This document shows positions 40,182 through 53,006 of a DNA stretch of 64,000 bases, in pieces. The stretch lies in the sequence record MN850578.1. One strand, given 5' to 3'. Below the pieces are notes generated by a model. The model searched no databases. It was not told the DNA's origin and saw only the letters and a program-made list of their open reading frames with translations. The stretch is from Escherichia phage nomo. How positions within the stretch are numbered: position 1 is the stretch's first letter; every line of letters starts with the position of its first letter. Position numbers and translations under genes: made by a program.

Positions 40182-40235
40182 CGACCATCTTCTGAGGTGA
40201 TATAGTTTCCACGACAACTAAGAGAGGAGAGCACT

Positions 40236-40406
40236 GTGGAGACTAAAATCTTAATTCTTGCTGTGGTAGATACAACCGAAGGAGCTATATTCGAATCTGC
40301 AGGAGGGTATTTCTACCTACCATACGGAAAAAGAACTTCCGAGCCAAGTAAAGATTCAATCATCAAAGTGTTCCCGTGTGCTTTCTGGCTGGAGATTTTG
40401 GTATAA
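40236..40406 (+). CDS. possible small protein (56 aa)
   Basis: GTG start after agaggagag; below track length threshold. Confidence 0.3.
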   Translation: METKILILAVVDTTEGAIFESAGGYFYLPYGKRTSEPSKDSIIKVFPCAFWLEILV

Positions 40407-40432
40407 GATTGCAGAGGATTTGGGAGAGAATT

Positions 40433-40627
40433 ATGAGAAACAAGAAAGAACTTTACTCCGGTGAGTGGATCAACGATCAACAGGTGGGAGAGGTAACCTG
40501 CTTCCGATGTTTTACCAGGTACAATCTTAAAACTGCACCAAAAAGTGTTCCAAAGACTGACGGTTACTACATAAAAGAACCTCATTGCCCAAAATGTAAA
40601 TGCCGATTGTACTGGAGCAATCTGTAA
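40433..40627 (+). CDS. small zinc-ribbon protein
   Basis: ATG after gggagag; CFRC...CPKCKC cysteine pairs. Confidence 0.45.
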   Translation: MRNKKELYSGEWINDQQVGEVTCFRCFTRYNLKTAPKSVPKTDGYYIKEPHCPKCKCRLYWSNL

Positions 40628-40631
40628 GAGG

Positions 40632-40659
40632 TTGACATCTGAAAACTGCAGTGTATAAT
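40632..40659 (+). promoter_or_regulatory. sigma70-like promoter
   Basis: TTGACA, 16-bp spacer, TATAAT. Confidence 0.6.
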
Positions 40660-40690
40660 ATACGCATAAACTAACAGAGGGTGATGTATT

Positions 40691-40882
40691 ATGGTAATTT
40701 TTAACCGGGATGGTATCATAGTTAGACAGCACCCGTTCCTTGAATACTATCAAATTGAGCAATGGTGCTACGGGGATTGCAGTCACTCCTATGGGCAAAG
40801 TTGGGGATATCGTACAGTTTTTGAATCCACAGACCTTGACAAAGTAAAACAGAAAGTTTTAGAACTTCTTAACAACAAGTGA
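40691..40882 (+). CDS. hypothetical protein
   Basis: RBS agagggtg. Confidence 0.45.
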   Translation: MVIFNRDGIIVRQHPFLEYYQIEQWCYGDCSHSYGQSWGYRTVFESTDLDKVKQKVLELLNNK

Positions 40883-40892
40883 GTATCGTGCC

Positions 40893-41225
40893 ATGGTAAC
40901 ATTGGAAAGACGTAAAGCTATTGCCGCCACACTGGCAGACATCTTTTGGGATTGTAATTTAAAATCTACCCGAAATTGTGGTGCATCTGTAGATGTATTA
41001 TTCCCACGGCCTACTATTGTTGCAATGGGCAACCTGCTCGATGTGGTATATGGAGCATGGGACAAGGAAGGTGGATTCTATATCTGGCAACCTGACTACG
41101 GGACTTGGAAAGAGGTTAGTGGTTCTTCGGACTTCACTCCTGCAGTGGCTAAAATGGATGGCTGGAAAATCTATGTCGGTAACGACATGGAACTGAAAGG
41201 CGAAATTGTTTACTGGTTACCTTAA
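40893..41225 (+). CDS. hypothetical protein
   Basis: ORF with weak RBS. Confidence 0.4.
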   Translation: MVTLERRKAIAATLADIFWDCNLKSTRNCGASVDVLFPRPTIVAMGNLLDVVYGAWDKEGGFYIWQPDYGTWKEVSGSSDFTPAVAKMDGWKIYVGNDMELKGEIVYWLP

Positions 41226-41246
41226 GAAAGTCCAGGAGATAAAGTT

Positions 41247-41492
41247 ATGAACAAAGGGTGGACATTTGTAGACGGCGTTAAAAACATGCCTCTAGGAAAG
41301 TATATTGTAGCCATGGCAGATGAGAATGGCAAGGTTGATTTCGGAGTTTGCGAGGTTGTTCTTGCAGGATCTGGTGACTATGCTCACAAAACTGGGATAA
41401 TTAACGGTCATTTCTACTTTGATTACAACCCTGTTGTGGCGTATATGGCTATGCCAGAGTTCGAGCTCCCAAAGGAAGGTGCAGATGTTTAA
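41247..41492 (+). CDS. hypothetical protein
   Basis: RBS caggaga. Confidence 0.5.
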   Translation: MNKGWTFVDGVKNMPLGKYIVAMADENGKVDFGVCEVVLAGSGDYAHKTGIINGHFYFDYNPVVAYMAMPEFELPKEGADV

Positions 41493-41682
41493 GCTTAAAT
41501 CTGCATGGAACATCGCTGTGGGGGACGAGATCCGTATCCCAGGTGGAAAGACCATTATGAAAATATCTCGTATCGAGTACGAAGGTGATCGTGTATTTCA
41601 TATCTTTGCAGAAGATGGTCGAGAAATTTATATACAGGCAGGCTCTCACATCTATATTCGTAAGAAAGGGGAGGACAAATGA
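41485..41682 (+). CDS. hypothetical protein
   Basis: Start moved to ATG after aaggaagg. Confidence 0.45.
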   Translation: MFKLKSAWNIAVGDEIRIPGGKTIMKISRIEYEGDRVFHIFAEDGREIYIQAGSHIYIRKKGEDK

Positions 41683-42008
41683 CAGAGATCATCATTTCAA
41701 CTGCAGGGTATGTATTCCTGACAATCATTGCGCTGGCTATTCTGGTGGCGGTGTATGGATTTGTTATCCTTCCTATCCTTGAGACATTTAGTTTGTGTCG
41801 GTGTTGGAGAAAAGCTTACGGTCCACAACCATGGAAGGACTGGCCCCACCTGGTGCGCTTAGCGTTCTCTTATGCTTACGATCACTCCAGTAGTGCATGC
41901 ATAACCGGATACCACGCCAACAACTGGAGCTGGGAAGGGTTGAGGAAATGGAATGTTACAAAGACCATACCTCTGCGCATGTACAAACCTAAAAACAAAG
42001 ACAACTGA
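41679..42008 (+). CDS. hypothetical membrane protein
   Basis: ATGA overlap; N-terminal hydrophobic helix IISTAGYVFLTIIALAILVAVYGFVILPIL. Confidence 0.5.
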   Translation: MTEIIISTAGYVFLTIIALAILVAVYGFVILPILETFSLCRCWRKAYGPQPWKDWPHLVRLAFSYAYDHSSSACITGYHANNWSWEGLRKWNVTKTIPLRMYKPKNKDN

Positions 42009-42039
42009 TACTTGAAAATTCCTGGCATATCAAGTATAA

Positions 42040-42540
42040 GGGGGATTTCTAAAATGGATTTCCTCCTTTTGATATTTCACCGGGCTGGATATTTTAAAAT
42101 TCTTAGAAAATCAGAAAATGGATCGAAAACTAAAATGGATTTTTCAGAGTAGGCGCGACAAGCTGAATAACTCATCCTATCGTTTGCACCATATTCCAGG
42201 CCACCATTATAGATTTCCCACACATGCTAACCTCCCTCTACTAGAACTTCCTCCACTTACCCTTGACCTTCTATGGTAACAATCTAACCGCTATCTTGAA
42301 GTTGCGGTGCAGCTTTCCAGGTACTCGATCTACTTTTCATTTCAGGGCTTGGATTTTCTGAAAATTTTTCTCGATAAATTTCTCAGTACTCGATCTGTTT
42401 TTCGTCTTCTGAATCGGATTTTCTGGAAATCGTTCCGGCTCTCAACCTGAAATTTTTGGGGACGAAATCGATTTTTCGTTTTCAGAAATGGATTTTTAAA
42501 ATTTCTATATGGGAATATTTTAGTGGATACTATTTTATAG
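42040..42540. repeat. iteron-like direct-repeat region (non-coding)
   Basis: At least six copies of aaatggattt / cggattttctgg and two copies of caggtactcgatct / cagtactcgatct; no credible ORF. Confidence 0.6.
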
Positions 42541-42643
42541 TAAATTGTTACGGAGGGTAATTAGCGTGCTAATTAAATTTATTAAATGCGAGGAGTTCTC
42601 ATTTAGAATCTTGAATGATAATCATTCTCGTTTGCAGAATAAC

Positions 42644-42677
42644 GGGCAGGCCCGGTGATTGTCTCCCGGCCCCTGTT
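42644..42677 (+). repeat. conserved motif, copy A
   Basis: gggcaggcccggtgattgtctccc..cctgtt; degenerate copy at 42789-42806; inverted copy at 52271-52299. Confidence 0.6.
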
Positions 42678-43023
42678 GCCCCGGCTTGTTATTATAGTAT
42701 CACACAGGACAAAGAAAGCAAGGATTTTTTTTTGCATAAATTTTTAAATGATAATGATAACCGTTCTCATTTTATGCAGCGCTCATCCCTGGTGGTTGTC
42801 TCCCCCGTCACCGGTGCCTGCCGTCCTTTCGATAGGTATATTGTGCCACCTGTCGGGGCCGCTGTCAACACTTTTCAAAAAATTTTTCTAACCTGATGCG
42901 CTAACCGCTGCAACCTGGCGGGGCCAGCCTGGCAGGACCTAACTGACCAGGTGGGAGAGGGTGAAATCTTGCAAACCTGGTAGGCCCATGCTGTAGGGTA
43001 AACAATTGAAGAGGAGGTACAAA

Positions 43024-43161
43024 AATGAAAGGTAATGCTACTCACCTGGGAAATGTAGTGATTAATGATACAGAAGCGCGGGAACATAAAGAAGAGTACG
43101 AAAAAATGGTGGTTAACCTGGCGGGGGGCGGCAGGTGGATTCTATCATAAAAATAATTTAA
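43024..43161 (+). CDS. possible small protein (45 aa)
   Basis: Perfect AGGAGG 7 nt before ATG; below track threshold. Confidence 0.35.
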
Positions 43162-43169
43162 AATAATCG

Positions 43170-43198
43170 TTGACAACAAGGTTAATCATGGTATTATT
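43170..43198 (+). promoter_or_regulatory. sigma70-like promoter
   Basis: TTGACA, 17 bp, ATTATT. Confidence 0.5.
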
Positions 43199-43247
43199 AC
43201 CCTACAAGGTGAACAACACCGCACTAACCAGTAAAGAGGATAAATTT

Positions 43248-43445
43248 ATGAACGCATACGGGATCAAAGTACGTCGCAACACTCGCCAGGTGGTCACCGA
43301 TCAAATGGTTTGCCAGGTGGACGTAACCATCAACAACGGGCAAGGCCTTTATAAATTCCGTCGCGGTCAGAGCTATACCCGGCAACAGCTTAATCGTTGC
43401 GCCCTGACAAAAGGACAGATCAACCACTGGTTTAATAAAAAATAA
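43248..43445 (+). CDS. hypothetical basic protein
   Basis: ATG after aaagagga; track TTG start at 43170 is the promoter -35. Confidence 0.5.
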   Translation: MNAYGIKVRRNTRQVVTDQMVCQVDVTINNGQGLYKFRRGQSYTRQQLNRCALTKGQINHWFNKK

Positions 43446-43448
43446 GTA

Positions 43449-43477
43449 TTGACATATAGTCCGACACCAAATACACT
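43449..43477 (+). promoter_or_regulatory. sigma70-like promoter
   Basis: TTGACA, 17 bp, TACACT. Confidence 0.5.
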
Positions 43478-43509
43478 AAAAGCACAAAAGACACTAAGAG
43501 GATAAAATC

Positions 43510-43908
43510 ATGAAAACCACTACCTTTAATTTTGATAATGCGGACTTTTCTTTTTCTGATGTCAAGAACTACCGCCGTGATCGTGGATTTTACAAGGCTT
43601 ATAATCTGGTGGGCCTGGACGATGACAATAATTTGCACGAAGTAGCTGAGATCCGGTATTATGCCGCCGCCAGCGGGAACACTCACTACTGCGTGTTTTG
43701 GATTCACGACAACAAGAACAATAAGTACGGTTATACTGGCGGCAAGGCGAGCGGTCACGGTTACGATAAAGCTAACGCAGCACTTGAGAGCGCATTAAAT
43801 GCTATGGGGATCACTGCCGACGGCTGGATCTACGAAGAAGAGTTTTTGTCGGCACTTGCTGACCACCTGGGCTATAAAAAACACATTGTAACATGCGCCC
43901 ACGAATAA
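43510..43908 (+). CDS. hypothetical protein
   Basis: RBS aagagga. Confidence 0.55.
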   Translation: MKTTTFNFDNADFSFSDVKNYRRDRGFYKAYNLVGLDDDNNLHEVAEIRYYAAASGNTHYCVFWIHDNKNNKYGYTGGKASGHGYDKANAALESALNAMGITADGWIYEEEFLSALADHLGYKKHIVTCAHE

Positions 43909-43914
43909 AAATCA

Positions 43915-43942
43915 TTGACACGCTGCAAAATTTAAGTAAACT
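43915..43942 (+). promoter_or_regulatory. sigma70-like promoter
   Basis: TTGACA, 16 bp, TAAACT; followed by hairpin ggcgggaatgtttcccgcc (43953-43971). Confidence 0.45.
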
Positions 43943-43990
43943 AGACACAAAAGGCGGGAATGTTTCCCGCCAGCACAAAGGAAAAAGATC

Positions 43991-44386
43991 ATGAATAAGA
44001 ACGTACGCCGCATCATGAACGAACTGGCAAACGATGAAAAAATTATTGATATGCATTTGGTCAACATTTGCCGCCGTTGTGTAACATATAACAACCGCGC
44101 CGCAAAAGCGTGTGAGATGAACGCAAAAGGCACCTTAAAGCCCTTTCAGGTGGTTGTAAAATCTATAACTAGCGCAGCAGGCCAGGCGCAGGACCACAAC
44201 AACGAGAGCGCTAATATTGATCCGTCTTACGTAATGAAACGGATCCGGACTTGCAAGAATAAAGAGCAGGTATATAACGTCATAGATTGGCTGGACTCCC
44301 TGGGCGATGTGGTTTACAATAGGTTTTCTGCAGCTATCGAGATCCAGCTTGACAGATTGGACGGGAAAGTACTAAAAACTTATTGA
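43991..44386 (+). CDS. hypothetical protein
   Basis: ATG after aaaggaaaaag. Confidence 0.55.
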   Translation: MNKNVRRIMNELANDEKIIDMHLVNICRRCVTYNNRAAKACEMNAKGTLKPFQVVVKSITSAAGQAQDHNNESANIDPSYVMKRIRTCKNKEQVYNVIDWLDSLGDVVYNRFSAAIEIQLDRLDGKVLKTY

Positions 44387-44387
44387 G

Positions 44388-44434
44388 TTTATTTTTAGAT
44401 GGCCTTGACACCAGGGCCATCAATAAAGTAAACT
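44388..44434 (+). promoter_or_regulatory. repeated promoter/operator cassette, copy 1
   Basis: tttatttttagATGGCCttgacaccagGGCCATcaataaagtaaac; -35 TTGACA inside 6-bp inverted repeat; near-identical at 45010 and 48745. Confidence 0.55.
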
Positions 44435-44465
44435 AACCACAGTTGAGCGGAAAAGGAGGCTTAAA

Positions 44466-44585
44466 GATGAGCACTACACGCCAGCACACAAAGGTAACCA
44501 TCATCGTTTGCATCATTGGGTACATCCTGGCGCAAATGTTGATGGGTAGCGCCAACGGTGTCGCAAAATTTTTCTTAAACTTTTA
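44466..44585 (+). CDS. small hydrophobic peptide (39 aa)
   Basis: RBS aaaaggagg; MSTTRQHTKVTIIVCIIGYILAQMLMGSANGVAKFFLNF; single predicted TM helix. Confidence 0.4.
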
Positions 44586-44586
44586 A

Positions 44587-44614
44587 TTGACAAGCTAACT
44601 TAAATCGATATAAT
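44587..44614 (+). promoter_or_regulatory. sigma70-like promoter
   Basis: TTGACA, 16 bp, TATAAT. Confidence 0.6.
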
Positions 44615-44665
44615 AAGCACATAAACGGGAAAACTTCCCAGAACACACAAAAGGAGAAAAACACC

Positions 44666-45007
44666 ATGACTACTATGACCGCCTCAGAAAAAGCTATGCA
44701 GATCGCTGAACTGAAAAAACAGATCGCAGACCTTGAGAATAAGATCGATAACTTTGAAATCGACGAGGACAAGTACGACGAAAACTATGATGAATGGTTA
44801 GACGAGATCTACGGAGAAATTATGATCGGAAACATTTCTTTTCTTCCGTCGCGTATCCTCAAGGAGCTAGATCCTATCGCTTACCGCTGCGGATTTAGCG
44901 ACTACATCGACAGCCTGGATATTGAGGACGATGAAGAATACCAGGAATTACAGACAGAGTTAGAAGAAGCAAAAGAAGAGCTTGCGGAGCTGGAAGAAAA
45001 CGAGTAA
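44666..45007 (+). CDS. hypothetical acidic coiled-coil protein
   Basis: RBS aaaggag; 113 aa, Glu/Asp-rich. Confidence 0.55.
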   Translation: MTTMTASEKAMQIAELKKQIADLENKIDNFEIDEDKYDENYDEWLDEIYGEIMIGNISFLPSRILKELDPIAYRCGFSDYIDSLDIEDDEEYQELQTELEEAKEELAELEENE

Positions 45008-45009
45008 GC

Positions 45010-45054
45010 TTATTTTTAGATGGCCTTGACACCAGGGCCATCAATAAAGTAAAC
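45010..45054 (+). promoter_or_regulatory. repeated promoter/operator cassette, copy 2
   Basis: Identical core to copy 1. Confidence 0.55.
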
Positions 45055-45096
45055 TTTATACTGTTAACACTGAACTAATGCATAGGAGTTAAAACC

Positions 45097-45342
45097 ATGG
45101 CAGCACTAATCACCAAATATTATGCCCCTACCAACACCAAAAGCGCCCGTATCATGGTAAAAGGCTTCGGACGTAAAAAGGTGTACACCTGGGATTATGC
45201 CTTAGACACGGAAGACAACTACACCAACGCAATGACCGATTTTATTAATGAACTAAATAAGCAGATCTTGACAAGTTATAAAGTGACTGATATTGCTTAT
45301 ATAGGTGAAGGCGGGATCTGTTTTGTAGGCATTGTGAAATAG
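45097..45342 (+). CDS. hypothetical protein
   Basis: RBS aggag. Confidence 0.55.
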   Translation: MAALITKYYAPTNTKSARIMVKGFGRKKVYTWDYALDTEDNYTNAMTDFINELNKQILTSYKVTDIAYIGEGGICFVGIVK

Positions 45343-45416
45343 TTATTTTTTCGGTGGTCCTGGCTGCAGGGCCATCTATAAAGATAATTTATCAACACCA
45401 TGAAAGGAGAAAGTAC

Positions 45417-45770
45417 ATGATCAGCGGGGCTAGTTTTATTATTGGCGCTATTGCTACGGCTTTAATTGTAAACAAGATCCAATCTAAAAACGAAAAAGAT
45501 AGCAACGCGCTCACAGAATACCCATTTTGGGTATTCAACGACAACGAAGACTACATAATCAAGTACAAAGATGAGAGAGGCGACCAGGTAACACCGCGAC
45601 CGATCCCAGCTTACAAGATGCAGGAAACACTATACCGCCTAAAGGCCGGAGGCGCAAAGATCGTAGACTTTTGGGGATATGATTGCAAGGATCAGGAGGT
45701 CATAAAACGTCGTATCCGGGCGATTCAGGCAAATATTGAAATTAGTAAAGGGGAAATTTATGAAAATTAA
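45417..45770 (+). CDS. hypothetical membrane-anchored protein
   Basis: ATG after aaaggaga; N-terminal helix ISGASFIIGAIATALIV; preceded by a diverged cassette copy at about 45345-45395. Confidence 0.5.
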   Translation: MISGASFIIGAIATALIVNKIQSKNEKDSNALTEYPFWVFNDNEDYIIKYKDERGDQVTPRPIPAYKMQETLYRLKAGGAKIVDFWGYDCKDQEVIKRRIRAIQANIEISKGEIYEN

Positions 45771-45957
45771 TTTCGAAAAAATTGTAAAGCGCCCCCACGA
45801 TTCCGAAGAGCTGCCGGAACGCCGCCAGCGTAACAATAAACTGAATAAACCGAAAAGGTTCGGGAAGATCTGGAGGAATCACTATGATCGCAAATTACCG
45901 GGCCTGCTTTTGGAACGTGAACGACAGGCGGAACGATACCGCCACAAAGGCAAATAA
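45760..45957 (+). CDS. hypothetical basic protein
   Basis: ATG after aagggg, overlapping upstream stop; Arg/Lys-rich. Confidence 0.4.
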   Translation: MKINFEKIVKRPHDSEELPERRQRNNKLNKPKRFGKIWRNHYDRKLPGLLLERERQAERYRHKGK

Positions 45958-45965
45958 CAACCAAC

Positions 45966-45991
45966 GCCCCGCCATTGTGCGGGGCTTTTTA
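45966..45991 (+). terminator. rho-independent terminator
   Basis: gccccgc-cattgt-gcggggc then tttttattt. Confidence 0.7.
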
Positions 45992-46127
45992 TTTCTATCC
46001 TACGAATAGCGCCCCTGGTTGGCACCACAAACGCCACAAAAGCCCCTACCTATGCAATCCCCTTTCTTAGCCTGAAAACATCACCCAGGACCGTTTTATG
46101 GTGTTAAAAATATCTTTTATTTAAAGC

Positions 46128-46156
46128 TTGACACCTTGGAATCGCCTGGATATACT
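46128..46156 (+). promoter_or_regulatory. sigma70-like promoter
   Basis: TTGACA, 17 bp, TATACT. Confidence 0.6.
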
Positions 46157-46191
46157 AACCACATCAAAGCAAGAAGAAAGGAGTAAACGCC

Positions 46192-46452
46192 ATGCGTAAA
46201 TTAAAAAATTTTGATAAAGTCGATGTTGTCCTGAATAATTTTTACTACTGCAATAATAAGGCCGTTTGGTGGCGTGATAGTTCCACCGATAAAGTTAAAG
46301 CGCGCTTTCTCCAGGGGCACTGGCAAGGCCGCCCAGTGATTAAGATCCGGGGGCAATTGGTAGCGTTTAAAAATTGCCGCCGTGTTGATGACGTTGAAGA
46401 GATTCTAAACATTTTACGCCACAATAATTTAAAAAATAGTGTTGACAAGTAA
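46192..46452 (+). CDS. hypothetical protein
   Basis: RBS aaaggag. Confidence 0.55.
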   Translation: MRKLKNFDKVDVVLNNFYYCNNKAVWWRDSSTDKVKARFLQGHWQGRPVIKIRGQLVAFKNCRRVDDVEEILNILRHNNLKNSVDK

Positions 46453-46469
46453 GCCTCAATAAGTATACT
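46442..46469 (+). promoter_or_regulatory. sigma70-like promoter
   Basis: TTGACA, 16 bp, TATACT; followed by hairpin ggcgggaaaacttcccgcc (46480-46498). Confidence 0.55.
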
Positions 46470-46526
46470 TAAACACACAGGCGGGAAAACTTCCCGCCAC
46501 TAACAAAGAAAATAGGAGAAAATATC

Positions 46527-47150
46527 ATGACCACCGTTAACATTACCGCAGGTTACAATTTATCTTTCGACGTGCTGACCGACGAACAAAAAGAAAAAGC
46601 CGTTGAAATGGTCCGCGAAAGAGAAGAACACAGCGGGGATAACTTTTTTGCAGAAAGTGTAATTGAATACTATAAAGAATATGTTTTTCCAGAGTATGGC
46701 CTTGAAGATACCGAAGTACATTGGTCAGGCTTTTGGTGCCAGGGTGACGGCGCGTCAATCAGTGCTGAAAACGTGGATTTAGAAAAATTTTTGCGTAAAG
46801 TAAAGGCCCTGACCAAGTTCCGATCAATTCGTCACTTGTTCGGCACAATGCACGATGGCGAGTTATCAGCCAGTGTTGAGCGTGATCCATATAGCCGCTA
46901 TAGTCACGAAAACACTGTAAGCGGATACATTGATACCACCTGGCTAGATCTGACCGCCAAACAAGAAAACAAAGTGGAAGACTTGGAAGAGCTGATCACC
47001 GAGACGGTACGGGAGCTATCCCGCAAGGTTTACGTAGACCTGGAGGAGGCCTATCTTGAACAGTTTACTACCGAAAACCTGATCGGCCTTATTGAGGCCA
47101 ATGATTGGCGGTTTGATGTGGATGAATATGGCGAGATGACTTTTTCATAA
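46527..47150 (+). CDS. hypothetical protein
   Basis: RBS ataggaga; 207 aa. Confidence 0.55.
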   Translation: MTTVNITAGYNLSFDVLTDEQKEKAVEMVREREEHSGDNFFAESVIEYYKEYVFPEYGLEDTEVHWSGFWCQGDGASISAENVDLEKFLRKVKALTKFRSIRHLFGTMHDGELSASVERDPYSRYSHENTVSGYIDTTWLDLTAKQENKVEDLEELITETVRELSRKVYVDLEEAYLEQFTTENLIGLIEANDWRFDVDEYGEMTFS

Positions 47151-47158
47151 ATAAAGTG

Positions 47159-47186
47159 TTGCAATAACCTAAAAACCTGCTATATT
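47159..47186 (+). promoter_or_regulatory. sigma70-like promoter
   Basis: TTGCAA, 16 bp, TATATT; followed by hairpin ggggcaagacgtttgcccc. Confidence 0.5.
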
Positions 47187-47239
47187 AAAACTCAAGGGGG
47201 CAAGACGTTTGCCCCACACAAAACAAAGAGGAAAACATT

Positions 47240-47620
47240 ATGAAAAACACTACCAAGGCTATTGACACCGTTATGTTTAACCTGGTTACATTCCGTGAAG
47301 ATATGAAAGATCTTCCACGTGAAACAGTGTGCGATCACATTGAAAACTATCGCAAACTAATCAAAGAGTTGCCCCTAAAACGTGACCAGTATGCGGCTAA
47401 CGCTATGCTCAACGCCATGATCAAAAAGATGATCCAGTGTGATTTAACCCTGGCCTATGACTATGCGGGTGGTCGTTTTGCAGTATACAATCAGCCCGTG
47501 CCCGGTATGGGCACCACCGAAGAATTGCACGCGCTCAATCTAAAACAAGACGTATGGGATAACATGCCCCGCGTGGTGGTGTGGGCAGAAAGCGGAAAGA
47601 TTTACGGCGATAATTTTTAA
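47240..47620 (+). CDS. hypothetical protein
   Basis: RBS aaagagga. Confidence 0.55.
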   Translation: MKNTTKAIDTVMFNLVTFREDMKDLPRETVCDHIENYRKLIKELPLKRDQYAANAMLNAMIKKMIQCDLTLAYDYAGGRFAVYNQPVPGMGTTEELHALNLKQDVWDNMPRVVVWAESGKIYGDNF

Positions 47621-47630
47621 TCAGGTAACA

Positions 47631-47656
47631 GGCGGCATATTTGCCGCCTTATTGTT
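47631..47656 (+). terminator. rho-independent terminator
   Basis: ggcggc-atattt-gccgcc then ttattgtt. Confidence 0.6.
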
Positions 47657-47684
47657 AAACAGAACTGCAAAAGAGGTACATAGA

Positions 47685-48056
47685 ATGGAATTTATTATTT
47701 TGGCTGTAGTAGTTGCCTTGTTCAACGCCTGGATCGCTGGCAAGATGGGTAGATCCGCCTTTTTATGGTTTATTATATCTATTTTCCTGGGGGTGGTTGC
47801 AACTATTGTACTTGTTATCCTTGCAATTGTTGACAAGGGGAATAATAGAAAGGGTAAAGTATTTTCAGACCTGTACGACGCTCAAACGTTTGTCAACGCC
47901 TATTATAGTGATCTTCCAGTCTCCCTACGCTGCAGCCTGGCACAACAAGTTTTCGATGAGGCTAAAACCAGAGATCAAGCCCATGAGATATGTTTAACTG
48001 AGGCGGATCGCCTATTTGAGAGGAATAGAAAATATGTGGGCCAACCGTTTAAATAA
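47685..48056 (+). CDS. hypothetical membrane protein
   Basis: ATG after aaagaggt; two hydrophobic helices at N-terminus. Confidence 0.5.
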   Translation: MEFIILAVVVALFNAWIAGKMGRSAFLWFIISIFLGVVATIVLVILAIVDKGNNRKGKVFSDLYDAQTFVNAYYSDLPVSLRCSLAQQVFDEAKTRDQAHEICLTEADRLFERNRKYVGQPFK

Positions 48057-48275
48057 TGCCACGTTAATTAATCCCTTTAGTGAAGATTTGAAGCCAGCCG
48101 CCTGGCGTGATGGATTCAATAACGAACGCTTTATTTTCAAGCCTGATCTTGAGGAATTTTATAACAATGGATCGAACAACGACAGAGATAATTTTTCTTG
48201 TGGTGTGCGTAGTGATGGTACTCCTGGGGGCCATTGTAAACCACGTCGCTACTAACAGGGGGAAAGGGGGAGACG

Positions 48276-48395
48276 ATGACACCCAAGGATAAGCCCCGCA
48301 CCGATAAGGCGCGCCGTGTTATGGTATGGCTTGAGATCATCGCCCTTGAAATATTGTTAGGGGTAGGGATGTACTTTATCGCTGTAAGTAACTAA
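48276..48395 (+). CDS. small hydrophobic peptide (39 aa)
   Basis: ATG after gggggaga; MTPKDKPRTDKARRVMVWLEIIALEILLGVGMYFIAVSN; region 48016-48292 also holds overlapping alternative frames, unresolved. Confidence 0.35.
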   Translation: MTPKDKPRTDKARRVMVWLEIIALEILLGVGMYFIAVSN

Positions 48396-48399
48396 GAAC

Positions 48400-48427
48400 G
48401 GCCCCCCGATCATGGGGGCCTATCTTT
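48400..48427 (+). terminator. putative terminator followed by A14 tract
   Basis: ggccccc-cgatcat-gggggcc then tatcttt and 14 consecutive A (48428-48441). Confidence 0.4.
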
Positions 48428-48454
48428 AAAAAAAAAAAAAATTCTTCCGGGGTG

Positions 48455-48482
48455 TTGCAATCCGGTCCGGAATGTGGATAAT
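48455..48482 (+). promoter_or_regulatory. sigma70-like promoter
   Basis: TTGCAA, 16 bp, GATAAT; followed by hairpin ggggagacactcccc. Confidence 0.5.
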
Positions 48483-48541
48483 AACAATCAACGGGGAGAC
48501 ACTCCCCACCGCATAGACAAAGTTCCAAAAGGAGAAACAAA

Positions 48542-48742
48542 ATGAGCAACAATATCCGCGTTATTAACTTCAAAAAAGAAGAAAAAATTGCCGTGCTGAT
48601 TGACGGTCAAGAAATCTTTAAAGGTGATTATGAAGATCATCAAACGGCGATTAGTATCACTCGCGTGATTGGTTACCATAATTTTTACCCTCAAGGCGCT
48701 GAGGCAGCAGTAAAACGAATTAAAGAGATTGTAGGCCTGTAA
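48542..48742 (+). CDS. hypothetical protein
   Basis: RBS aaaaggag. Confidence 0.5.
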   Translation: MSNNIRVINFKKEEKIAVLIDGQEIFKGDYEDHQTAISITRVIGYHNFYPQGAEAAVKRIKEIVGL

Positions 48743-48744
48743 AA

Positions 48745-48790
48745 TTTATTTTTAGATGGCCTTGACTCCAGGGCCATCAATAAAGTAAAT
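48745..48790 (+). promoter_or_regulatory. repeated promoter/operator cassette, copy 3
   Basis: Same 46-bp cassette with one substitution in the -35 (TTGACT). Confidence 0.55.
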
Positions 48791-48833
48791 TTAAACCCTG
48801 TTAAAATAATCAGTGCAAAAAGGAGTAATGATC

Positions 48834-49133
48834 ATGTTTATCCAGGCTAATAATCTTTATTTCTTTGATGGTCAGATCGTAGACGGCGTGGAGGTGGAAA
48901 TCACCGGGTGCCCTGGCGGTCAGGTTATGACTTTTCGGAATAATGCCTTTGATGATTCTCATATCGTTATGAGAATGGAAGTTAGTAAGCTGGATGACAA
49001 GAAAACACTTATCGACTATTCCGTCAAAGATCATCCAGACTACCACATGATCTATGGTGATTTGTGCATTGTTGACCGTGACAAGGTGGGCGGCATTGTG
49101 ATCGCTATTGTGAACGATGTTTTCTCAAACTAA
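48834..49133 (+). CDS. hypothetical protein
   Basis: ATG 9 nt after aaaaggag. Confidence 0.5.
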   Translation: MFIQANNLYFFDGQIVDGVEVEITGCPGGQVMTFRNNAFDDSHIVMRMEVSKLDDKKTLIDYSVKDHPDYHMIYGDLCIVDRDKVGGIVIAIVNDVFSN

Positions 49134-49150
49134 TTTCAGCAGGTGATTTT

Positions 49151-49501
49151 ATGAAAGTAAAACTATATTACCTTAATGAGCTTAACCCCCTTGCCCAGGT
49201 CCGCGCCCTGGCTAATACCTTGATTTGTGAGAAATCTGTATATTGTGTTGAGCTTAACGCCATGCGTGAACGTCTCAAAGGTGGTTACTTTGACATCCAT
49301 GCTGCAATCAACGGCCTGAATATAGAATTTATCCGCTTACGTAACAGCCGCCAGAATCTGGCAAGAATGGAACAAGATCCGGCCCACCTTCGTAAGCTGG
49401 TTATTGAAAATCATCTGATGTTTAATGCCGATGGTGATTATTACCATTTTCACCGTAAACGCTGGTACCGTGGCGGCAATACAGGCAAGAATGCAAAATA
49501 A
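49151..49501 (+). CDS. hypothetical protein
   Basis: RBS aggtga. Confidence 0.5.
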   Translation: MKVKLYYLNELNPLAQVRALANTLICEKSVYCVELNAMRERLKGGYFDIHAAINGLNIEFIRLRNSRQNLARMEQDPAHLRKLVIENHLMFNADGDYYHFHRKRWYRGGNTGKNAK

Positions 49502-49538
49502 GGCCCCAGGCAGGGCCTGCAGCGATATAATCACATAA

Positions 49539-49570
49539 AGGCTATGCGGTTGCATGGCCTTTATTATTTT
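49539..49570 (+). terminator. rho-independent terminator
   Basis: aaggctatgc-ggtt-gcatggcctt then tattatttt. Confidence 0.55.
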
Positions 49571-49617
49571 AGCGTTACAGCGGCCCCAAGGCGCTTAAAA
49601 AATTTTTAAAGAAGTAC

Positions 49618-49645
49618 TTGCATCAAGTCCTACAATATGGATAAT
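49618..49645 (+). promoter_or_regulatory. sigma70-like promoter
   Basis: TTGCAT, 16 bp, GATAAT; followed by hairpin gggggcggccccc. Confidence 0.5.
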
Positions 49646-49702
49646 AGGACGTGTCAGGGGGGCGGCCCCCAATCATTAACCGGATAGATAGGAGTTAAAA
49701 TC

Positions 49703-49987
49703 ATGGCTATTGTCACCGTTGGCGATGTAGTGGAAATGGAAGCAAAATACTTAAAAGCGGGTATGCATATCCTACGGAATGATCAAGAATTGTTATTAAC
49801 GATGGTAGACTATAATCCCGGCCAGGATTATCCAAGCATCGACTACTTTTTTGAGTATGTTGATGAAGAATTGAAAGAGGATGAGGCTTATCAGGGTGAA
49901 TTCTGCAATTTCTTTTGCCCTGATGAGGTTGTAAAAGTTATCTATCAACCTGGAGTACCTTTCCCGCTGCACGCTATCAATAAATAA
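49703..49987 (+). CDS. hypothetical protein
   Basis: RBS ataggag. Confidence 0.5.
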   Translation: MAIVTVGDVVEMEAKYLKAGMHILRNDQELLLTMVDYNPGQDYPSIDYFFEYVDEELKEDEAYQGEFCNFFCPDEVVKVIYQPGVPFPLHAINK

Positions 49988-50041
49988 ACCTGGCGGGGCC
50001 GAAAAGGCCCCAATTATGAAAATAAAGAGAGGTAAATCATC

Positions 50042-50275
50042 ATGATGGAACAAATTAAACGCGCTGAGGCTATTAATGGCAATGTGATCTATTTTGTCAG
50101 CAAAAACGAAAAAGGCGTACCATATGCGGCGGTAATAGTACAACCTGACGGCGATTATTGGTTTACTGTATACGGATCTTATTCTTTCGGGCGTCCGGTT
50201 CATGATAGAATTTTGAAAGTAGCAAATCCGACCGGGAAAAATATCACAGCAGAAAAATTTTTTGAAAATAGTTGA
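50042..50275 (+). CDS. hypothetical protein
   Basis: RBS aagagagg; preceded by hairpin ggggccgaaaaggcccc. Confidence 0.5.
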   Translation: MMEQIKRAEAINGNVIYFVSKNEKGVPYAAVIVQPDGDYWFTVYGSYSFGRPVHDRILKVANPTGKNITAEKFFENS

Positions 50276-50299
50276 CATGACCATATAAGACTGTAATAT
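50272..50299 (+). promoter_or_regulatory. sigma70-like promoter
   Basis: TTGACA, 16 bp, TAATAT; followed by hairpin ggggggcaacaagcccc. Confidence 0.55.
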
Positions 50300-50351
50300 A
50301 TAAATCAAAGGGGGGCAACAAGCCCCACCAACCACAAAGAGGATAAAAATC

Positions 50352-50531
50352 ATGGCTATTATTGCAAAGACTGAGATCGTAGGCTTAGATTCTATTCTCC
50401 TCGCATATGAGGAAGCTATAGAAATGTATGTGGTTTCCTATGGTGAATATATCCGTGAATATAAATCTATTGATCTAGCTTTTGAATGTTATATTCGCCA
50501 GGTCAATAAAGCATATGATGATTATCGTTAA
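50352..50531 (+). CDS. small protein (59 aa)
   Basis: ATG after aaagagga; below track threshold. Confidence 0.45.
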   Translation: MAIIAKTEIVGLDSILLAYEEAIEMYVVSYGEYIREYKSIDLAFECYIRQVNKAYDDYR

Positions 50532-50613
50532 AATAGTTTGACAACAGTCAACAATCTGGTAAAGTGTACTACATAGCGCGGGAATACTTCCCGCCATTAA
50601 TGAGGGTAATTTA

Positions 50614-50751
50614 ATGAAAACTTTCAACGCAACAGCCTCGACAATTGGTTATATTATTACAGTACAAGCCGTGGATCTGGTAGCAGCAGCAAACAAGATT
50701 AAAAAGATGATTCCGCCAGGTAGTGAATTTTCCGTTTGGGAAGTAAAATAA
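50614..50751 (+). CDS. small protein (45 aa)
   Basis: ATG after gagggtaa; preceded by promoter-like TTGACA at 50538 and hairpin gcgggaatacttcccgc. Confidence 0.4.
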   Translation: MKTFNATASTIGYIITVQAVDLVAAANKIKKMIPPGSEFSVWEVK

Positions 50752-50754
50752 ATC

Positions 50755-50782
50755 TTGACAATAATTTATTACTTGATAGACT
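50755..50782 (+). promoter_or_regulatory. sigma70-like promoter
   Basis: TTGACA, 16 bp, TAGACT. Confidence 0.5.
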
Positions 50783-50834
50783 GTATTTCGTAGTGCGGGG
50801 CAATAAGGCAACGCCCATTAATGAGGGTAGAATC

Positions 50835-50939
50835 ATGTTAGAGAAAATTTTCACGGTTGTAGTAGTTGGCCTGGCATTATCGGTTGGATGGGTTGCAACT
50901 ATGGCTAACATGATCCTATCTTCCCACGGTATCGGTTAA
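50835..50939 (+). CDS. small hydrophobic peptide (34 aa)
   Basis: ATG after gagggtag; MLEKIFTVVVVGLALSVGWVATMANMILSSHGIG. Confidence 0.4.
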   Translation: MLEKIFTVVVVGLALSVGWVATMANMILSSHGIG

Positions 50940-50940
50940 A

Positions 50941-51165
50941 GTGAATCAAATGATCACGAATAAAACAGGTAAAACGGAATTCTTGCGCGGCTTGCAGGTC
51001 GGCAAGCCTGAGATCTGGCATTGCACTAAAACACCACGTGACGAAATGAAAGACTTCACCGCCACGCTGCAACGGGTAAAGATATCCATCACGCAGAAAA
51101 AGGCCTTGATAGTGGTGGAAGGTGAGATCCCTCAAACCGTTGTTATAGTTGAGCGTACAGCATAG
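50941..51165 (+). CDS. hypothetical protein
   Basis: ORF without clear RBS; start GTG 50941 or ATG 50950. Confidence 0.3.
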   Translation: MNQMITNKTGKTEFLRGLQVGKPEIWHCTKTPRDEMKDFTATLQRVKISITQKKALIVVEGEIPQTVVIVERTA

Positions 51166-51256
51166 TTTAATTTATACCGATACCCGAAAATTAACCAACA
51201 AAGCATAAACAGGCGGTTACCGCCGCCTTAAACGTAGCAGAAAGAGGATAGACACA

Positions 51257-51541
51257 ATGAAAAAGATGATCGCAGTGGTTGCCCTGGTTGTTGGACTTAA
51301 TGCGCCTGTAATGGCTAAAGAGCTGGCAAAAGAGGTTAATCTAACGGATATCCATGCCGTCAATCAAATCGGGGTTACTTATCGCTTATGCCTTGCCGCT
51401 AAAACTTTTAATGACGGTACAACAGAGTACTACGGATTCGAGGGTATCCGGTGCGGTGAGCTTGCTCGCGACCTTAAGGAAGATCCAGACCTGGAGGATC
51501 TACCCATAACCGTGAACGGTAAAGCTTACTTTAACCGTTAA
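51257..51541 (+). CDS. hypothetical secreted protein
   Basis: RBS aaagagga; signal-peptide-like MKKMIAVVALVVGLNAPVMA. Confidence 0.55.
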   Translation: MKKMIAVVALVVGLNAPVMAKELAKEVNLTDIHAVNQIGVTYRLCLAAKTFNDGTTEYYGFEGIRCGELARDLKEDPDLEDLPITVNGKAYFNR

Positions 51542-51690
51542 CCGTGAAAAAGATAATCATTACCTTGGGGATTGTGGCGGGATCGCTGGCGCTCTTTCCC
51601 CTTATGGTTAGATATGTGCTGATCAGTATTGTCCTGGTGGTCAGTGATCTACTAGAAACGGTTGGCACCTTGTTTTAAAGAGCGATAAAA

Positions 51691-51882
51691 ATGAATGTTG
51701 AACAAGTTAGAAAGGTATTGGCGGTACTGCGTTATCATAATCATTGCAAGGTGAAGAATGATCCTGATTATCTTGATTCATCCCTTGAAGAGGATACACT
51801 ACAAGCCATAAGCAACATGCAAGAATTGCTTAAGCGTATGACAGAGAAAAACCGACCGGACTACATAGGGGGTAAAATATGA
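51691..51882 (+). CDS. hypothetical protein
   Basis: RBS aaagag. Confidence 0.45.
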   Translation: MNVEQVRKVLAVLRYHNHCKVKNDPDYLDSSLEEDTLQAISNMQELLKRMTEKNRPDYIGGKI

Positions 51883-52190
51883 TCGCTATTACGCCAACCG
51901 TTTTAGATTGGTATCGGCAACGCATAGCGCCTCCGCTGGCTATCTTCAAAGATGCGGAAGCAAAACAACGCCGGATCTCAATACATGAGATCATCAACCT
52001 TAACGCTGGAGGCACACCATACCGCCCAGGACCTGGCCGTGAGATGGACAATACGTTAGCGATCCTGAAGATACGCCGTAAACGGTCCTCCCTTACGCTG
52101 GACTCATTACACACAATGCAGCCTCCGTTCCAGGTGACCGGGAAACGGATCGCCAGGTCCTGGACAAAGGCCAATGATCGGACCGTATAA
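51879..52190 (+). CDS. hypothetical protein
   Basis: ATGA overlap; RBS aggggggt. Confidence 0.45.
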   Translation: MIAITPTVLDWYRQRIAPPLAIFKDAEAKQRRISIHEIINLNAGGTPYRPGPGREMDNTLAILKIRRKRSSLTLDSLHTMQPPFQVTGKRIARSWTKANDRTV

Positions 52191-52270
52191 ATAAAAGTGT
52201 TTTGGTACTGATTTTGGGGTTGACTTGTTCGGCCCCTTTTGCTATTCTTATTAAACGGGCGGCACTTGGG

Positions 52271-52299
52271 AACAGGGGGAGACAATCACCAGGCCTGCC
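52271..52299 (-). repeat. conserved motif, inverted copy
   Basis: Reverse complement reads ggcaggcctggtgattgtctccccctgtt, matching 42644-42677. Confidence 0.6.
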
Positions 52300-52324
52300 T
52301 GTCATATAAGAACTATAAAAACCG

Positions 52325-52353
52325 TTGACATCTGCCATGGGGTGAGGTAACAT
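52325..52353 (+). promoter_or_regulatory. sigma70-like promoter
   Basis: TTGACA, 17 bp, TAACAT; followed by hairpin gggcaaaagtgccc. Confidence 0.5.
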
Positions 52354-52407
52354 TTATCTTGAAGGGGCAAAAGTGCCCACACAACAACCAGAAGAGAGGA
52401 AAACATT

Positions 52408-52680
52408 ATGTCAAGCTGGATTAATCAAGAAGTCGAATCACGTTTTAATGCTATTTGGGATCTCATCGAAAAAGAGGACGGAACATCAAGCCCTTATCTC
52501 AATAATCTTGAATTCCATTTCGTGGAAGCGATGAACGCAGAACATGATCACGAAGGTGGTGCGGATGAGTTCGCTAAAGGGTATGGCTTCAACAATGCCA
52601 ACGAAATGATCGAGGCGGTTGTACTCCAGGCTGAGGAAGATTATCAATTAAAAACGCTTGAATTCTGCCGCCGTAAGTAA
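52408..52680 (+). CDS. hypothetical protein
   Basis: RBS agagagga. Confidence 0.5.
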   Translation: MSSWINQEVESRFNAIWDLIEKEDGTSSPYLNNLEFHFVEAMNAEHDHEGGADEFAKGYGFNNANEMIEAVVLQAEEDYQLKTLEFCRRK

Positions 52681-52742
52681 TAAGATAATGACACGGGCCA
52701 AAAGGCCCACTAAACAAAAACCACATAAAGAGGAAAAACATC

Positions 52743-53006
52743 ATGAAACGTCTTGACCAGCTCAAACTAGTTCAATATATGGCTTATCGTGTTCTGGAAG
52801 TCCAGAAAGGTAGCAAAAAAGAGGTTTGCGAGAAAGCTTATAAGATCTTTACCCGCAAAAAAGATGACTGGATGCTACGCCAGACCAAAAAGGCTGACAT
52901 CTTGGGGTACCTGGAAGAAGAGATCCGACTTGAAGAACAAGAAGAGATCCGCCGTAGTGAGGCAGATTATCAGGCAGCTTGGGAAAACTGGATGAGCAAC
53001 AAATAA
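52743..53006 (+). CDS. hypothetical protein
   Basis: RBS aaagagga; preceded by hairpin gggccaaaaggccc. Confidence 0.55.
   Translation: MKRLDQLKLVQYMAYRVLEVQKGSKKEVCEKAYKIFTRKKDDWMLRQTKKADILGYLEEEIRLEEQEEIRRSEADYQAAWENWMSNK

Follow-up and report, generated by a model that had tools for sequence, protein, structure and literature searches.

An rV5-like coliphage (genus Vequintavirus) carries four copies of a 49-nt cassette within 4.4 kb of its early region, which is rich in ORFans. As judged from the sequence variation of this cassette, selection acts on the folding of the sense strand, in the simplest case as RNA, and not on a DNA operator. We lean towards a composite model in which the cassette combines an RNase III-type hairpin, a sigma-70 promoter and a recombination patch, its cleavage and promoter activity being predictions. 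More tentatively, the cassette is proposed to be a dual-coded element, which at the DNA level would act as a sigma-70 early promoter and at the RNA level as a T7-type RNase III hairpin insulating early gene modules. In the current work, the window refers to the whole analysed stretch of 64,000 nucleotides.

The repeated unit, its placement and its conservation

An earlier note on this DNA described a 46-bp cassette occurring three times, with one substitution in the third copy. The three copies are real and belong to a 49-nt unit (94-100% identical), but the third copy carries two substitutions: the 46-mer is matched without mismatch at 44388-44433, with one mismatch at 45009-45054 (exact from 45010), and with two at 48745-48790 (a loop A>T and the final C>T), while none of 100 shuffled controls matches it. 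The diverged copy suspected near 45345-45395 was located at 45341-45389 and is 73% identical to the 49-nt unit. The features of the locus are as follows.

44386-44434, + strand: copy 1 (c1 type), hairpin and predicted promoter; -35 TTGACA at 44405-44410, -10 TAAACT at 44429-44434
44386-44395/44425-44434 and 44398-44407/44412-44421, + strand: lower and upper stem of copy 1
44396-44397/44422-44424 and 44408-44411, + strand: internal loop and terminal loop (ACAC) of copy 1
44424/44425 and about 44441, + strand: predicted RNase III cut and predicted TSS of copy 1
44435-45006, + strand: gene module A, between copies 1 and 2; 39-aa ORF, consensus promoter at 44587-44614, 113-aa ORF
45007-45055, + strand: copy 2 (c1 type); -35 TTGACA at 45026-45031, -10 TAAACT at 45050-45055, predicted cut 45045/45046
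45056-45340, + strand: gene module B, between copies 2 and 4; 81-aa ORF at 45097-45342
45341-45389, + strand: copy 4 (c4 type), hairpin only; CTGGCT at the -35 site, predicted cut 45379/45380
48743-48791, + strand: copy 3 (c1 type); -35 TTGACT at 48762-48767, -10 TAAATT at 48786-48791, predicted cut 48781/48782

The placement after a stop codon and before a gene, which had been proposed earlier, holds for all four copies. The cassettes begin at or overlap the stops of the upstream ORFs (TGA at 44384-44386, TAA at 45005-45007, TAG at 45340-45342 and TAA at 48740-48742), the stop overlapping the cassette base, and the next start codon, an ATG with its RBS, lies 27-42 nt 3′ of each cassette, all four cassettes being co-oriented with the flanking genes. 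A search of the complete genome, as previously suggested, returned no copy beyond the 4.4-kb stretch, and the cassette is restricted to this stretch and to the genus Vequintavirus. An exact-pattern scan with CAGGGCCATCWATAAAG of viral, metagenome and genome contigs was dominated by chance 17-mer matches, among which a handful of Vequintavirus contigs was found (L006/L010/L037, L009, L044, L053, L085, L090 and L130). A flanking 117-aa protein was likewise found in the genus Vequintavirus only, and a covariance model of the cassette gave no match in a Stephanstirmvirinae phage that has a neighbouring gene in common. In an Rfam scan of positions 40000-54000 no family matched any cassette (one sub-threshold chance hit lies elsewhere), and the motif string of the cassette gave no match in a literature text search. 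The cassette is absent from the 33 promoters (spacer N15-17) and 20 terminators listed in the rV5 genome paper, while the Murica record annotates two cassettes as 45-nt ‘terminators’ and other public records leave the cassettes unlabelled.

The cassette is under purifying selection: it is conserved at 96.3%, whereas coding sequence reaches 93.3% and the remaining intergenic DNA 85.1%; in a lineage of 85% identity the corresponding values are 95.4%, 87.1% and 82.7%. A selfish or neutral dispersed repeat, functionless and spread by duplication or recombination, might be expected to show the concerted evolution seen between neighbouring copies, and the restriction to four copies within 4.4 kb also agrees with it. 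We nevertheless assign this explanation a very slight probability, as the conservation of the cassette exceeds that of adjacent coding sequence and, by a wide margin, that of other intergenic DNA, also in the 85%-identity lineage, the fold is maintained by compensatory substitutions, and the cassette is strictly placed at stop codons and co-oriented with genes.

A hairpin maintained on the sense strand

The whole cassette constitutes an imperfect sense-strand hairpin, composed of a 10-bp lower stem, a 2x3 internal loop, a 10-bp upper stem and a tetraloop. The 6-bp inverted repeat reported in the earlier note is in reality the core of this 20-bp, two-part (10 + 10 bp) structure. The same + strand fold was obtained for 4/4 copies (-21 to -25 kcal/mol, z -5.2 to -7.8), including copy 4, which adopts the same 10 + 10 bp fold at -23.5 kcal/mol even though it is without a -35, and the - strand of which folds weakly (-8.1 kcal/mol, z -0.8). 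Absolute stability alone is non-discriminating, because a scan for stable hairpins across the whole window retrieved 94 windows at -21 kcal/mol or lower.

Among 29 distinct cassette variants from approximately 20 genomes, pairing is kept in 97.6% of cells, falling to 34-57% when the 3′ partner is slid as a control, and RNAalifold agrees with the fold. Changes on both sides occur at four pairs (8-54, 9-53, 11-51 and 12-50) across the 29 variants, which are mostly derived from genomes 90-99% identical and therefore represent roughly 5 independent covariation events. These compensatory changes link positions about 40 nt apart, and pairing is also kept by G-U wobbles; within the window itself, pair 8-54 is compensated between copies 1 and 3, from G-C to A-U. 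Considering that G-U wobbles and compensatory changes keep the hairpin, even in the copy lacking a -35, selection appears to act on the folded strand. G-T pairs would stabilise a single-stranded DNA hairpin too.

The earlier note had interpreted the inverted repeat as an operator bound by a common repressor or activator, that is, a promoter with its -35 inside a 6-bp palindrome bound on double-stranded DNA. The arrangement GATGGCC...GGCCATC on either side of the -35 in three copies is what such a site would look like, yet we consider this reading unsupported and very unlikely. The paired positions span the entire 49 nt, with compensation across about 40 nt, and the - strand pairs markedly worse than the + strand (85.7% versus 97.6%, and 78.6% on the - strand of the diverged c4 type). 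In addition, copy 4 retains the ‘operator’ in an intact hairpin but has no -35 to be regulated, and its DNA palindrome is broken at 3/10 positions while G-U keeps the RNA pairing at every change. A palindromic operator was rejected on this loss of symmetry in the c4 type with retained sense-strand pairing, together with the difference between strands and the covariation.

Beyond pairing, positions 34-42 (in the 3′ arm) and 44-49 (AUAAAG) are invariant across both cassette types, A44-G49 being so in 29/29 variants. This invariance exceeds the needs of pairing and, together with a conservation higher than that of coding sequence, may be taken to indicate that the hairpin is a protein-binding site, serving a translational repressor, an antiterminator or a single-stranded-DNA binder, instead of a nuclease substrate. 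We regard this as unlikely, since the analysis yielded no candidate for such a protein, the loop sequence of the c4 type varies freely, and RNase III reactivity determinants around the cleaved bond, or else gene conversion between copies 334 bp apart, would explain the invariance equally well.

Resemblance to RNase III sites and the predicted promoter

The folded sense strand most likely corresponds to a T7-type early RNase III processing signal, which the cassette matches in shape and register, cleavage being deduced by analogy. The T7 early RNase III sites are, like the cassette, intercistronic hairpins (in the case of T7 contained in early transcripts of the host polymerase) in which a tetraloop caps an upper stem of some 10 bp and an asymmetric internal loop separates this stem from a lower one, and in both systems mutually similar sequences recur between genes. 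When folded, T7 R0.3, R0.5, R1 and R1.1 exhibit an upper stem of 9-10 bp and a loop of 4-5 nt, and R1.3 a stem of 13 bp and a loop of 3 nt, an internal loop and lower stem being present in all five; the UA/AAU internal loop is identical in R1 and the c1-type cassette. Across 6.6 kb of early T7 sequence, the top three matches of the cassette covariance model, all at full model length, were R1, R0.3 and R1.1; only their locations are informative, as the matches are individually non-significant (E 1.3-4.3). The model scores are at chance level, and no sequence homology between T7 sites and cassette could be shown. In these matches the T7 cleavage coordinates, reportedly those of Dunn & Studier (1983), align to cassette U45; the T7 records NC_001604 and V01146 leave the RNase III sites unannotated.

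E. coli RNase III substrates typically comprise two helical turns, internal loops confine the enzyme to a single bond, with protective hairpins left at the 3′ end, and a minimum of about 11 bp separates the cut from the tetraloop (PMC1540722). The 10 + 10 bp of the cassette correspond to the two helical turns described there, and its 2x3 internal loop lies 10 bp below the tetraloop, a register equal to that of T7 R1, R0.3 and R1.1; its upper stem is one bp under the quoted minimum, unless the internal loop stacks.

Otherwise, without any involvement of RNase III, the hairpin might terminate or attenuate transcription in a factor-independent manner, or it might block 3′ exonucleases, promoter and recombination being unchanged. 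Like intrinsic terminators, the cassette places a hairpin directly after a stop codon, in keeping with the ‘terminator’ labels of the Murica record. Moreover, in PeSLs, the promoter-early stem-loops of the T4-like phages RB49/phi1, T4/PST and KVP40/nt-1 (Arbiol et al. 2010, PMC2839356; Comeau et al. 2014, PMC4122927), the stem-loops have been interpreted in this way, and one of them reduced downstream lacZ expression about as much as rrnB T1 (PMC2839356). Unlike intrinsic terminators, the cassette has an AU-rich lower stem, a conserved internal loop and no U-tract on either strand: at most 3 U occur in the 8 nt after the stem, and a terminator scan lists 0/4 cassettes as intrinsic terminators. 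Canonical terminators with a GC stem and T-run are found in the region where expected, at 45966, 47630 and 49535, and a simple terminator needs neither the conserved internal loop nor the invariant AUAAAG. We therefore hold a terminator-type function to be possible but doubtful.

With regard to the promoter layer, the promoter reading offered earlier is plausible, as a sigma-70 promoter, for the three close copies, the diverged one having no -35. A generic scan scored TTGACA/TTGACT-18-TAAACT/TAAATT at 9-10/12 in the three close copies, in which a TTTATTTTT tract lies upstream of the promoter boxes, and left the diverged copy unlisted; on the - strand of the cassettes it returned neither promoter nor terminator. 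The c1-type copies keep TTGAC but have any of the four bases at the sixth -35 position, and TAAAYT is invariant despite uncompensated mutation of its pairing partner, whereas in the promoter-less c4 type the -10 positions co-vary freely (GATAAT, GATAGT, GACAGT). As read from these substitutions, TTGAC-N18-TAAAYT is under promoter-like constraint in the three near-identical copies. The cassette flanks are similar to neighbouring consensus promoters at 43915 and 46128; weak points of the predicted promoter are its 18-bp spacer and a -10 that matches the consensus at 4/6 positions.

In the composite model, read-through transcripts would fold into the hairpin directly after the stop codon, and host RNase III would make a single cut at the 3′ strand of the internal loop, behind invariant U45; the upstream message would thereby keep a protective hairpin at its 3′ end and be parted from the downstream message. 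On the DNA, the T-rich tract, TTGAC at the hairpin apex, the 18-bp spacer and TAAAYT in the 3′ arm of the lower stem would form a sigma-70 promoter that restarts transcription of the next gene. T7 also couples promoters to its sites (E. coli promoter C at R1, and phi1.1A/B on either side of R1.1), but its hairpins lie downstream of or beside promoters, whereas the cassette promoter is inside the hairpin, for which reason transcripts from that promoter would be without the hairpin and only read-through transcripts would carry it. The fourth copy would work as a hairpin only.

Recombination between cassettes and likeness to PeSLs

The suggestion that the cassette is a recombination hotspot was borne out by cassette-bounded gene losses, a hybrid cassette and gene conversion between copies. 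In related genomes gene modules have been lost exactly between cassettes: module A is missing in phages magaca and ECP26 and in metagenomic contig L009, with a single c1 x c2 cassette at the junction, and module B is missing in phage 241Ecol014PP, with a copy 2/copy 4 hybrid cassette at the junction. Assembly artefacts were considered and are unlikely for the c2 x c4 hybrid, because no exact match between the two copies exceeds 10-11 nt, and for the c1 x c2 junction, because it is seen in three sources with different flanking haplotypes. Copies also evolve in concert by gene conversion in related genomes, the same loop variant being present in copies 1 and 2 in 10/15 genomes (permutation p = 0.0007, in a test that ignores phylogeny). 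Since they are near-identical direct repeats, the copies probably act as homology patches, recombination between which deletes or inserts gene modules and homogenises the copies.

By analogy, the cassette is a PeSL-like promoter/stem-loop element outside the T4-like phages. Both are AT-rich intergenic composites that start from the upstream stop codon and lead up to the SD/start codon of the next gene, are set among small ORFans, and combine an AT-rich upstream tract, sigma-70-type -35/-10 boxes (predicted in 3/4 cassette copies) and a stable stem-loop, which overlaps the -35 or -10 in PeSL subclasses and the promoter boxes in the cassette. Both are also associated with element-bounded indels between close relatives that leave a chimeric element at the junction. 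They differ in host lineage (Vequintavirinae as opposed to T4-likes), in sequence, which is unrelated, and in number, PeSLs occurring in many copies across T4-like hyperplastic regions and the cassette in four copies within 4.4 kb. PeSLs are further characterised by the formation of mini-circles and by promoter and terminator activity in reporters. The PeSL stem is short and GC-rich (GGGG...CCCC) and of terminator type, while the cassette nests the whole predicted promoter in a 20-bp two-part hairpin with an internal loop that resembles an RNase III site, and its sense-strand covariation and promoter-less paralogue show selection on the fold.

If correct, the dual-coded element would be the first PeSL-like shuffling cassette outside T4-like phages, and its natural promoter-less paralogue would separate promoter from RNA-hairpin function. 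The model predicts exact cleavage and start sites, and the annotation of two cassettes as terminators in one public record, and their lack of a label in others, would be corrected. If this is confirmed, selection would be acting on the stem-loop in its folded, single-stranded form, in the simplest case RNA and probably an RNase III site, and the cassette would represent a compact natural “insulator”, with processing signal and promoter within 49 nt. Vequintavirus-type phages are common in therapy and typing collections (rV5, BASEL phages), and the model would explain the recurring gene-content differences between Vequintavirus genomes; the shuffling of ORFan modules by mobile promoter/stem-loop cassettes would, if confirmed, extend to unrelated large coliphages.

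Repeat copies and genomic setting

The window derives from a Vequintavirus (rV5-like) E. coli myovirus, and over 44000-49000 it matches HdK5 and CarlMeissner with 99.8% identity. In this region small hypothetical genes all run in one direction, and near-consensus sigma-70 promoters and canonical terminators occur at high density, on which basis the region is regarded as early and ORFan-rich. A repeat finder located the following copies of a 49-nt intergenic unit, here named the cassette.

Cassette copies (copies 1-3 are 94-100% identical)
44386-44434, + strand: copy 1
45007-45055, + strand: copy 2
48743-48791, + strand: copy 3
45341-45389, + strand: copy 4, diverged, 73% identical

The earlier note had reported three copies of a 46-mer, and these were recovered at 44388-44433 (no mismatch), 45009-45054 (one) and 48745-48790 (two, so that the third copy is less exact than was claimed), with no match in 100 shuffled sequences. 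Each cassette has its 5' end at, or overlapping, the stop codon of the preceding + strand ORF, and lies 27-42 nt from the next start codon. By blastn the cassette is present in 120 phage records, all Vequintavirus, typically as three close copies per record. The 64-kb window and the other 74 kb of the CarlMeissner genome together contain exactly four, no further cassette being detected in either by Hamming scan, nhmmer or covariance model. No Rfam family matches it, a literature search with the motif string gave no match, and it is not among the 33 promoters and 20 terminators catalogued in the rV5 genome paper; one public record, Murica, annotates two of the four cassettes as 45-nt "terminators".

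Several other features of the phage were recorded. A 126-aa membrane-protein gene (47274-47607) is 70-76% identical at the nucleotide level to sequences of Justusliebigvirus and Phapecoctavirus (phi92/phAPEC8-like) phages, and adjoining genes have matches of ~68% in jumbo phages, 121Q among them, which suggests, from sequence matches, that early accessory genes may be exchanged between phage groups. Seventeen UNVERIFIED 'Campylobacter phage' records (MG0656xx) are Vequintavirus genomes ~93-95% identical to this coliphage and probably represent contaminant or wrongly labelled assemblies; the A12a record (MG065666) begins within cassette copy 1, implying an assembly break at the repeat. Intergenic 53761-53852 holds a long hairpin or large, almost perfect palindrome, each strand of which folds at -25 to -31 kcal/mol. 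One strong terminator hairpin, GCCCTGCCCGAAAGGGTrGGGC followed by a T-run, occurs twice, 10 kb apart, at 28348-28374 and 38482-38508, corresponding to rV5 t213 and t232.

The sense-strand fold

The predicted sense-strand RNA fold is identical in all four copies. Its lower stem is AU-rich and 10 bp long; above this come a 2x3 internal loop (UA/AAU in copies 1-3, the c1 type; UC/UAU in the diverged copy, the c4 type), an upper stem that is GC-rich and likewise 10 bp long, and a tetraloop, with energies of -21 to -25 kcal/mol (z -5.2 to -7.8). Folding is poorer on the antisense strand, where that of the diverged copy is essentially random (-8.1 kcal/mol, z -0.8). The -35 TTGACA takes its first half from the final three paired positions of the 5' arm and its second half from the opening three bases of the loop, while the -10 TAAACT constitutes the lower stem 3' arm and an upstream T-tract its 5' arm.

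The cassette region was retrieved from ~20 Vequintavirus genomes and metagenomic contigs, and 29 distinct 61-nt variants were aligned (positions below are columns of this alignment). Standard pairs occupy 97.6% of cells on the + strand, and two-sided changes are found at four lower-stem pairs, namely 8-54 (G-C/A-U/G-U), 9-53 (U-A/C-G), 11-51 (U-A/A-U/G-U/G-C) and 12-50 (A-U/U-A); three upper-stem pairs show one-sided change via G-U. When the 3' partner was slid by 1-3 columns as a control, only 34-57% of cells paired and the covariation score did not exceed 0.054, against 0.189 without the shift. RNAalifold recovered the same structure. Across 11 genomes the cassette is conserved at 96.3%, versus 93.3% for coding and 85.1% for other intergenic DNA, the corresponding values for L037, the most distant lineage, being 95.4%, 87.1% and 82.7%.

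The earlier note had viewed the -35 as embedded in a 6-bp inverted repeat acting as a double-stranded operator. That repeat is merely the core of the upper stem; pairing on the reverse complement drops to 85.7% of cells overall, and to 78.6% in the diverged type; and the diverged copy, which has CTGGCT at the -35 position and thus no -35, keeps its pairing, all three differences in its upper 5' arm being transitions. Because of this covariation, strand asymmetry, conservation and retention of the fold in a copy lacking the -35, the operator reading is abandoned: as judged from the aligned sequences, the selected feature is the folded sense strand, most simply RNA.

Likeness to T7 RNase III sites

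The cassette was rejected as an intrinsic terminator since in every cassette the hairpin lacks a following U-tract on both strands, and since none of the four is listed by a terminator scan that does detect canonical terminators close by (45966, 47630 and 49535).

The T7 early RNase III sites resemble the cassette in having 20 bp and an asymmetric internal loop and in separating cistrons of early transcripts made by the host polymerase. In the folding program used for the cassette, the upper stem of T7 R0.3, R0.5, R1 and R1.1 measures 9-10 bp and is capped by a loop of 4-5 nt, with an asymmetric internal loop and a lower stem beneath it; R1.3 folds similarly, except that its stem is longer (13 bp) and its loop has 3 nt. 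The internal loop of R1, UA/AAU, is the same as that of the c1 type. In an unfiltered run of the cassette covariance model on 6.6 kb of early T7 sequence, of which such sites occupy ~2% of positions, the best three matches were R1, R0.3 and R1.1, each over the full model length, with scores that are at chance level (E 1.3-4.3) and informative by location only. In all three alignments the coordinates 890, 3138 and 5887, which we take to be the T7 cleavage positions, fall on a U aligned to cassette position 45; they reportedly go back to Dunn and Studier in 1983, and RNase III sites are unannotated in the T7 records examined. Positions 44-49 (AUAAAG) are invariant in 29/29 variants.

A typical E. 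coli RNase III substrate comprises two helical turns, internal loops limit the enzyme to one bond so that a protective 3' hairpin is left, and the minimal cut-to-tetraloop length is ~11 bp (PMC1540722). From the T7 alignment, the invariant AUAAAG and these substrate features we infer that RNase III would cut after U45, with predicted cuts between 44424 and 44425, 45045 and 45046, 45379 and 45380, and 48781 and 48782.

Predicted promoter, recombination and comparison with PeSLs

A generic promoter scan scored copies 1 and 2 at 10/12 and copy 3 at 9/12, with a spacer of 18 bp. In c1-type copies TTGAC is nearly invariant, with A, T, C or G at the sixth -35 position, and the -10 TAAAYT is kept despite mutated partners at positions 8 and 9, leaving uncompensated mismatches in 10 of 22 variants; in the c4 type the -10-equivalent 3' arm covaries freely with its partner (GATAAT, GATAGT, GACAGT). 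The -35-proximal spacer (TTGACACC...) and post -10 sequence (...AACCACA) of copy 1 match a neighbouring 11/12 promoter at 46128, and AAGTAAACTA matches a predicted promoter at 43915. Scan scores, variation pattern and neighbouring matches together make a predicted promoter likely in three of the four copies, so that the promoter claim of the earlier note is plausible for these but does not extend to the diverged copy without a -35. Because the whole fold lies upstream of the predicted start (near 44441, 45062 and 48798 for copies 1, 2 and 3), transcripts initiated at the cassette would be devoid of the hairpin, which would act on read-through RNA only.

A second promoter/stem-loop family (repeat family D3) occurs at 43915-43971, 44587-44651 and 46442-46507, in the order near-consensus sigma-70 promoter, ~10 nt, leader hairpin (G)CGGGAAnnnTTCCCG(C), ACACAAA-rich stretch and RBS. 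Its first member in HdK5, and its first and third in Alma, are annotated as + strand terminators, with the T-run on the minus strand; Klebsiella phage phi1_175008 contains similar combinations of promoter and GGG..CCC leader hairpin.

When related loci were aligned to the window, two classes of large indel had both ends inside cassettes.

Cassette-bounded modules missing from related loci
44435-45006: two ORFs and a consensus promoter; phages magaca and ECP26, contig L009
45056-45340: 81-aa ORF; 241Ecol014PP

At the first junction a single cassette joins the upstream flank of copy 1 to the downstream flank of copy 2, on three different flanking haplotypes. The 241Ecol014PP hybrid combines the copy 2 body with the c4 3' end through a crossover in the common ATAAAG, breaking two lower-stem pairs and creating TTGACA-N17-GATAAT. 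Furthermore, the loop variants of copies 1 and 2 agree in 10 of 15 genomes (permutation p = 0.0007, uncorrected for phylogeny), and in several genomes 5'-arm variants of copy 2 are now in copy 1, both of which point to probable gene conversion between copies. The recombination alternative raised in the earlier note is thus borne out by the indels, the hybrid and these signs of conversion.

Indels away from cassettes also occur in the region, at 49148-49490, at a 46115-46117 insertion hotspot and at 43978-44478 in evolved rV5. The 116-aa ORF at 49148-49490 is absent in rV5, V18, HMD-6, RudolfGeigy, Aya, 'D#' and contig L053, with one constant junction of 2-nt overlap. The hotspot, flanked by the 45966 terminator and the 46128 promoter, holds ~275 extra bp with a 56-aa ORF in S127 BCL3 and ~555 bp in the L010/L037 lineage. 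The 'evolved' rV5_ev146 (LR699804) has lost 43978-44478, with flanking segments overlapping by 10 nt at the junction, and everything in the region from ~45908 onward, and therefore keeps copies 2 and 4 only.

Among described elements the nearest kind comes from T4-like phages: the promoter-early stem-loop (PeSL), an intergenic sigma-70 early promoter with a stem-loop that in some subclasses overlaps the -35 or -10, enriched among ORFans and mediating modular shuffling, with chimeric elements at junctions (PMC2839356; PMC4122927). The cassette displays the structural and comparative features of a PeSL, but belongs to a lineage unrelated to the T4-likes, has four copies only, all within one 4.4-kb stretch, and nests its promoter in a long T7-like two-part hairpin instead of a short GC stem; it also adds covariation evidence and a natural hairpin-only paralogue. 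To our knowledge, PeSLs have so far been described in T4-likes only. We place high confidence in the hairpin and in recombination and moderate confidence in the predicted RNase III cleavage and promoter activity, and prefer the full composite of hairpin, promoter and recombination by a narrow margin. The cassette may be filed as a PeSL-like element whose stem-loop would work like a T7 RNase III site, its chief novelty being the conserved sense-strand hairpin.
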